From Octopus vulgaris (taxonomy: Eukaryota): 64,000 bases of DNA. Positions 1,869 through 61,020 of this stretch are shown piece after piece (position 1 is the stretch's first letter; every line of letters begins with the position of its first letter). The position numbers were made by a program, and so were the translations under genes. The notes below the pieces were generated by a model that worked only from the letters and a program-made list of their open reading frames with translations, did not search any database and had not been told where the DNA came from. The stretch lies in contig OX597839.1 in assembly GCA_951406725.2 (NCBI GenBank), positions 38,564,001-38,628,000 on the forward strand. Reading direction: 5' to 3'.

Positions 1869-2003
1869 CTTCCACCTTGAGTTTAATTTCATGCTGTTTG
1901 TTTCCTCCTGGTTTTCCACCACCAGCACCAGCACCACTACCACCACCCAGGTCGATGGTTCTCGTCACAGAAGGGTTGAAACTCTCTATCACATCAGTTT
2001 TTC
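1869..2003 (-). CDS. Exon 24: [45 protein letters not shown]; gene continues left of the window
   Basis: AACAG acceptor, GTAATT donor, 135 nt, phase 1/1. Confidence 0.8.

Positions 2004-61020: not shown

Follow-up and report, generated by a model that had tools for sequence, protein, structure and literature searches.

The window analysed here is a stretch of 64,000 bases of Octopus vulgaris DNA (C26:38,564,001-38,628,000), and coordinates are given below as window positions unless C26 is named. Its minus strand carries 24 predicted exons running from 61020 to 1869, each flanked by AG and GT as read from the sequence. Joined together, they form a chain of 10,733 nt that encodes 3,577 amino acids and contains no stop, as expected from the 24-exon open frame of more than 3,500 amino acids put forward in an earlier sequence-only reading of this DNA. 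The exons, with the two domains that appear to be inserted in the repeats (LLTP, large lipid transfer protein), are:

60950-61020, minus strand: helical-bundle exon, amphipathic, model residues 267-290 (splice sites, frame, homologue collinearity)
60373-60518, minus strand: helical-bundle exon (splice sites, frame, homologue collinearity)
58478-58644, minus strand: helical-bundle exon (splice sites, frame, homologue collinearity)
56916-57090, minus strand: end of the bundle and first half of the M23/LECT2-like domain, with Lys for the first zinc-ligand His (56951) and the Asp retained (56942)
53874-54242, minus strand: second half of the M23/LECT2-like domain, with Ser for the catalytic His (54029) and the final His retained (54023)
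52628-52833, minus strand: linker exon, of low confidence in the homologue model
49923-50197, minus strand: helical-segment exon; homologues have a SAP-like motif at the equivalent place
47552-47749, minus strand: first half of a cysteine-rich beta domain, which is in tandem copies in some homologues
46659-46868, minus strand: second half of the cysteine-rich beta domain; weak (18% identity to P0073, not in P0090)
45770-45912, minus strand: helical-segment exon; weak (19% identity to P0073, not in P0090)
44469-44640, minus strand: helix and beginning of a long-stranded hydrophobic sheet (putative LLTP A-sheet)
42253-42323, minus strand: putative A-sheet exon
40656-40813, minus strand: putative A-sheet exon
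38077-39288, minus strand: end of the sheet, conserved furin-type site (39083), FN3-like repeats 1-2 and start of repeat 3
38537-38327, minus strand: PAN domain (Pfam PAN_1), apparently inserted within FN3-like repeats 1-2
32366-32460, minus strand: part of repeat 3, with a weaker donor site
21601-22134, minus strand: repeats 3-4
20520-20697, minus strand: repeats 4-5
18838-19031, minus strand: repeat 5
17829-18520, minus strand: repeats 6-7
15300-16870, minus strand: repeats 8-12
11920-14467, minus strand: repeats 12-17
11922-12744, minus strand: GH16-fold jelly-roll domain without ExDxE, apparently inserted in repeat 17
9669-10575, minus strand: second half of repeat 17, repeat 18 and start of repeat 19; basic site at 9942 conserved in the nearest homologue alone
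2641-2946, minus strand: repeat 19
1869-2003, minus strand: linker exon

About 18 serines occur in frame within repeat 8 (exon 15300-16870, model residues ~2094-2111); the serine-rich runs of P0090 lie elsewhere. Simple repeats are abundant in the window DNA, and intronic tandem arrays were found at 8258-8953, 30438-31098, 37045-37403 and 49190-49797, with periods of ~70, 184-217, 183 and 147 bases, respectively; some of them resemble tandem copies of a common SINE-like element. Short ORFs at 62073-63722, 24166-24441, 11719-11940, 4624-5198 and 29599-29886 appear by eye to be retrotransposon or DNA-transposon remnants, with RVT_1 at 62397-62714 (E 0.021) as their single Pfam match. At gathering thresholds, Rfam has no match anywhere in the window.

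As the exon boundaries were hand-picked from AG/GT candidates, phase agreement by itself is no independent test of the chain, and collinearity with homologues was used for this purpose instead. When homologues of the largest exon are aligned to the window, they match its minus-strand exons in unchanged order along its length. Length offsets at the 23 internal junctions are at most 5 residues at 22 junctions against P0070, 22 against P0073, 21 against P0100 and 19 against P0090; three of the exons, two of them weakly supported, are missing from the gene model of P0090. P0090, which carries a cephalopod label, is the nearest homologue, with 68% identity over aligned residues and 54-90% per-exon identity in most exons. 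Exons 46868-46659 and 45912-45770 show just 18-19% identity to P0073, and their assignment is based mainly on frame, splice sites and length. P0070 (5,016 residues) is encoded by a contig of 15,340 bases, and the transcript assembly of a sponge yielded P0100 as a complete ORF; we therefore infer that a single mRNA encodes the entire architecture in relatives. The window exons are thus predicted to be the middle 24 exons of one gene with a product of about 5,000 residues. Collinearity with single full-length homologues rules out several separate genes, and the single polypeptide of the sequence-only reading stands. In the genome, the exons for M23 and PAN each occur once. The largest exon was traced to 24 sequencing runs, none of them registered as RNA.

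The flanking DNA adds four exons upstream and five downstream, giving a total of 4,332 amino acids with no stop; the last of six exons below window base 1 carries the stop at C26:38,549,764. The downstream exons end in a cadherin-like/Big_9 domain, an EGF domain and a hydrophobic helix. On the upstream side, a 100-N gap (C26:38,636,458-38,636,557) lies 400 bases from the first local exon, and no related sequence was found in the 110 kb beyond it. With the N-terminal part of P0090 as query, three exons matching its residues 15-117 were located at C26:33,141-9,864, 38.6 Mb away on the same strand and heading toward the scaffold start. The assembly yielded no exons for P0090 residues ~118-477, a stretch of about 360 residues within the Vitellogenin_N part, and the Vitellogenin_N profile itself has no match on C26. 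Either a real rearrangement broke the gene in Octopus vulgaris and left the window exons as a headless or silent remnant, as the distance of the first three exons and the missing ones would suggest, or C26 contains a misplaced contig or scaffolding error. The former has only a very small probability, since the N gap lies next to the first local exon, the three distant exons have the same orientation and lead out of the scaffold at its start, and some 4,450 codons are uninterrupted, have canonical splice sites and show the high per-exon identity to P0090 given above. Misassembly is the simplest reading and the likely one. The sequence-only reading had suggested looking for a signal peptide, a vitellogenin-type N-domain or a membrane segment in the flanks; a predicted transmembrane segment downstream and the three distant Vitellogenin_N exons were recovered, while the signal-peptide exon of the Octopus gene was not located.

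The head of the protein is best understood from its homologues. Vitellogenin_N (Pfam cut-off 24 bits) is above cut-off in P0090, P0072, P0085 and P0297, with 46.2 bits in P0090, 41 in Lingula, 45.8 in Haliotis and 59.6 in Capsaspora. The 1,120 residues that follow this part were folded for P0070 (mean pLDDT 72, pTM 0.42), and the model contains, in order, a long-stranded sheet, a helix bundle, the M23 domain, a linker, helices, the cysteine-rich beta domain and a second long-stranded sheet, with strands of up to 27 residues in the two sheets. In a Foldseek search with this model, human MTP (microsomal triglyceride transfer protein) occupies the top two rows (E 4.9e-5 and 8.9e-5), and bee vitellogenin and lamprey lipovitellin are also listed; the MTP rows have rmsd values of 44-47 A and TM-scores below 0.1. 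MTP is not among the best 50 rows of two rigid fold searches with the same model; these rows cover residues ~109-540 alone and are taken up by matches to the M23 domain and to the bundle. The MTP_lip_bd profile matches the second sheet of P0129 with E 1.6e-4 and 21.7 bits, under its cut-off of 27; six further second-sheet stretches gave no match (0/11 rows). Family sheet profiles did not beat reversed controls against the MTP and vitellogenin-type loci of the octopus genome; for the genome's own MTP exon, the family sheet profile gave 10.3 bits vs 10.7 in reversed controls. The ESM Atlas result for the second sheet (top 0.76) was uninformative. Alignment A5, which held four contaminating M23-region fragments, was used solely for per-member scans. 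In the window protein the bundle is strongly amphipathic (moment 0.48) and basic (net +15), the second sheet is hydrophobic and the stalk is acidic. Taken together, sequence profiles and the homologue model lend good support to a head of the LLTP type, whereas a lipid cavity between the two sheets, such as the C-sheet and A-sheet of LLTPs enclose, is at most likely, as the Foldseek match to MTP is non-rigid (rmsd >40 A) and MTP_lip_bd is below cut-off. The lipid-interacting N-terminal part of the sequence-only reading thus becomes an LLTP-type head with a basic amphipathic bundle. The cysteine-rich beta domain is present in at least three copies in P0104, P0107, P0109, P0112 and P0115 (echinoderm, amphioxus, abalone), where the extra copies lengthen the insert between the sheets by up to ~2,400 residues.

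A rigid search with the P0070 model puts human LECT2 first for the M23 domain, with Z 13.6 and an rmsd of 2.3 A over 114 residues, and LytM, PrgK, DipM and EnvC follow within about 2 Z. Pfam Peptidase_M23 is above cut-off in 5 of the 27 proteins scanned. The characteristic motifs of M23 are HxxxD and HxH (PMC9662197), and in the window copy Lys and Ser replace the first zinc-ligand His and the catalytic His. When 47 incomplete rows are left out, both motifs are kept in 10 of 83 complete family domains and neither in 61. Copies with both motifs include five in named Littorina or Batillaria and one in Potamilus. The fold is therefore likely inactive in the window protein, judged from these residues, as had been suspected for its M23/LECT2-like part. 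Dead M23 folds are described as serving mostly protein-protein contacts (PMC9662197).

The jelly-roll domain of the window itself was modelled with pLDDT 84. Its top structural match is lichenase 3i4i (Z 22.2, rmsd 3.1 A, 193 residues), and the best 30 rows are GH16-type enzymes; L-type lectins come next at Z 15.5. The GH16 catalytic motif is ExDx(x)E, and it is present in 0 of 45 family rows, the catalytic strand having been assigned by eye. Fold and missing motif point to a GH16 domain that is likely inactive, and here too the earlier proposal of a dead GH16-like fold is borne out. The domain is 7-17% identical to solved chains, and sequence searches against solved structures gave nothing useful. 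Pfam GH16 has no match in the window's domain and weak matches in amphioxus alone (E 0.03-0.05), CBM39 occurs in none of the Pfam scans run, and the ESM Atlas (top 0.94) returned unnamed clusters with low recognition. Among the well-conserved columns of the domain, aromatics comprise one Trp and one Tyr.

The remaining part of the model is a stalk with 19 profile matches to FN3-like repeats, and 17-20 matches were found in all 19 sequences tested. PAN_1 scores 23.8 bits (Pfam cut-off 21.4), and split profile matches are interpreted as the PAN and jelly-roll domains each being inserted within a repeat. Both the repeat stalk and the PAN domain had been recognised before. The two furin-type sites noted earlier, 39083 and 9942, are present, but conservation singles out the first (41/67 aligned homologues vs 1/76), and functional weight for the second was dropped. 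In the family as a whole, three furin-type sites are conserved, in 40/41, 41/67 and 48/65 aligned homologues, against a background of 2.2%. The many N-x-S/T sequons of the sequence-only reading do not amount to a clear enrichment: 38 were counted vs 29.7 +/- 4.9 in 1,000 shuffles with a maximum of 46, and the idea was dropped. Hydropathy reaches 2.1 at model residues 4301-4321, a candidate transmembrane helix, and a C-terminal stretch of at least 1.8 is found in 37 of 45 homologues over 4,200 amino acids, while several full-length homologues begin with a hydrophobic stretch. The product is thus predicted to be a type I membrane protein and not a simply secreted one as first supposed, although the conserved furin sites could still release parts. 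The region before the cadherin-like domain appears by eye to be ZU5/GAIN-like; a Pfam scan of it gave no match. The tails are not conserved and have no shared signalling motif in the sequences examined; NPxY is absent from the octopus tail and present in 5 of 45 long homologues.

The reading we prefer, to which we give slightly less than an even chance, is a stalk-tethered, furin-processed protein for capture and lipid uptake, and we infer every functional step of it. Of the three conserved sites at which furin would cut the precursor, one follows the Vitellogenin_N part, the next follows the lipid-binding sheet and the last is close to the membrane; the resulting pieces would remain associated. 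About 19 FN3-like repeats would raise the head some 65-75 nm, as estimated from the size of such repeats. The PAN domain and the dead M23 and GH16 folds may dock on a microbe or lipoprotein particle through its glycans or proteins, the helix bundle, basic and amphipathic, may engage the membrane of this target, and the MTP-like sheet pair may take up lipid, after which the cargo could be internalised or the head shed.

The stalk and the membrane end could also belong to an adhesion protein or extracellular scaffold, in which the FN3 and cadherin-like rod sets the distance between cells, connects them or holds mucus or matrix in place, and the head is a protein-binding or oligomerising cap. The constant repeat number, the Big_9/cadherin-like and EGF domains ahead of the transmembrane helix and the suitability of dead enzyme folds for protein binding all agree with such a role, as do automatic labels such as Delta-like, CRB-like and DNER-like, which mirror the EGF and transmembrane end alone. 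It is nevertheless improbable, for it does not account for the retention of Vitellogenin_N, amphipathic sheets and a basic bundle across opisthokonts. The bundle has its own alternative, a tethered membrane-attack effector whose middle piece is freed by furin and whose bundle inserts in microbial membranes like an alpha-pore-forming protein, aided by M23 where that is active. The bundle is located between two conserved furin sites, and its structural matches include ClyA/AhlB/Hbl-type folds (Z 9-11) and TTYH channels (Z 11-13); however, Z values under about 13 are common for helical bundles, designed four-helix proteins reach Z 12.2, the matches have an rmsd of 4-10 A, and the M23 site is dead in the octopus copy, so that this reading is very unlikely. 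Capture with lipid uptake remains our preferred interpretation of both parts.

The family is not restricted to cephalopods. Searches returned at least 66 and at least 71 proteins, and 402 representatives at 50% identity, every family member carrying an automatic name alone. Named members come from bivalves, gastropods, Lingula, Owenia, Lineus, amphioxus, hemichordates and echinoderms, and also from the sponges Oopsacas and Oscarella, Capsaspora, and the chytrids Spizellomyces and Geranomyces. A cephalopod speciality, as first proposed, is therefore ruled out, and the octopus gene is a single-copy member of a wider family; several mollusc species have multiple copies. Both sheets, M23, PAN and GH16-like domains occur in order in 34 of 55 proteins of at least 3,900 amino acids, by profiles whose E-values are optimistic because they were trained on the same protein set. 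Family members from Capsaspora and chytrids contain both sheets together with an M23-like domain and 18-21 repeats, and most of them also the GH16-like domain; they lack PAN, the cysteine-rich domain and the C-terminal hydrophobic stretch, and the absence of this stretch suggests that tethering is not ancestral. P0119 has the animal layout plus Pfam PG_binding_1 and SH2, which fits microbe capture. In a quick tree of 51 rows, the octopus model groups with P0090 (support 100) within a mollusc-brachiopod clade (99); long branches meet among the unicellular rows, and no root or order of events is claimed from it. Distant matches in bacteria, cnidarians and others have mainly the repeats in common. 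The same FN3-like repeat type is found in large bacterial or metagenomic proteins (P0028, P0122 and others), one of them with a papain-family protease. No description of the family was found in the main text of open papers. Sequence comparison indicates an ancient and uncharacterised family, an LLTP-type variant.

This distribution bears on the view of the sequence-only reading, that of a pattern-recognition receptor in which dead M23 binds peptidoglycan and dead GH16 binds beta-glucan, leading to immune signalling or opsonisation, with a head as in immune-active vitellogenins. M23 and GH16 folds are both supported and are kept together from chytrids to molluscs, HxxxD and HxH survive in some M23-like domains, P0119 has its PG_binding_1 and SH2, copies are multiple in several molluscs, and vitellogenins are reported to bind microbial patterns (PMC12214520). 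Yet the octopus genome has a single copy, the GH16-like domain in repeat 17 of 19 is near the membrane and distant from the head, its conserved aromatics are limited to the Trp and Tyr noted above, dead M23 folds are mostly protein-binding hubs (PMC9662197), and the tails are unconserved, with no shared signalling motif. Wall sensing would leave the presence of the family in walled, non-immune chytrids unexplained and, in its pure form, the LLTP head as well. It is accordingly held to be unlikely, and capture and lipid uptake is preferred; with a microbial cargo, the two would partly coincide.

The interest of the family lies in what it may say about LLTPs. These are believed to predate the cnidarian-bilaterian split (PMC10799875), and their emergence has been linked to multicellularity in a text that covers the module anatomy of LLTPs and the immune roles of vitellogenin (PMC12214520). 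Four snail LLTPs are treated in PMC10799875, none of them described there in fibronectin or transmembrane terms. LLTPs are usually treated as soluble animal carriers, and a membrane-tethered form would be a new use of the module; Vitellogenin_N and MTP-like sheets in Capsaspora, with the same head layout in chytrids, would date the module back to early opisthokonts. The M23 review gives M23 as absent from fungi (PMC9662197), and the chytrid domains, if true, would be the first M23 fold reported there. A bolder proposal, tentative and itself somewhat on the unlikely side, is that the family is the oldest, unrecognised LLTP branch, predating the animal-fungal split, secreted or stalk-tethered, which would dock on microbial walls and strip lipid from prey or particles; MTP, vitellogenin and apoB may have arisen from its head. 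The active-motif M23 copies of some snails and one bivalve and the dead copies elsewhere form a natural comparison pair. Capsaspora and Spizellomyces are tractable in the laboratory.

Among known systems, the insect GNBP/betaGRP proteins have a soluble or GPI-linked two-domain layout and bind glucan mainly via an N-terminal CBM39, not via the dead GH16 domain. With these, LGBP and GH16 glucanases the octopus protein shares the jelly-roll fold, but it has neither ExDx(x)E nor CBM39, and its GH16-like domain appears to sit inside an FN3-like repeat of the stalk. LECT2, EnvC and DipM have the same fold as the M23 domain, which is here embedded in a giant protein and has lost the first zinc-ligand His and the catalytic His. 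The crustacean dLp/HDL-beta-glucan-binding protein is an LLTP precursor tied to glucan binding and is described as circulatory (PMC8416765), whereas the octopus protein is predicted to be membrane-anchored and has another architecture. The vitellogenin/apolipophorin subfamilies are defined by DUF1943 with VWD, or by DUF1081 (PMC10799875), and DUF1943, DUF1081 and VWD are in none of the Pfam scans of full-length homologues. The genome's own MTP and vitellogenin/apolipoprotein loci sit elsewhere: the MTP-type gene is at C7:2.93-2.95 Mb, and about seven Vitellogenin_N loci, three of them in tandem, lie on C28 (about 2.0-2.2, 12.6, 23.5, 24.7 and 27.6 Mb). With MTP and the other LLTPs (vitellogenin, apoB, apolipophorin II/I) the family shares Vitellogenin_N in homologues, two long-stranded sheets after it and a dibasic processing site directly after the helical part. 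It differs from them in the ~850 residues between the sheets, which comprise the bundle, the M23 fold, the SAP-like segment and the cysteine-rich domain, in the ~19 FN3-like repeats and the cadherin-like, EGF and predicted transmembrane segments that follow, and in having members in Capsaspora and chytrids.
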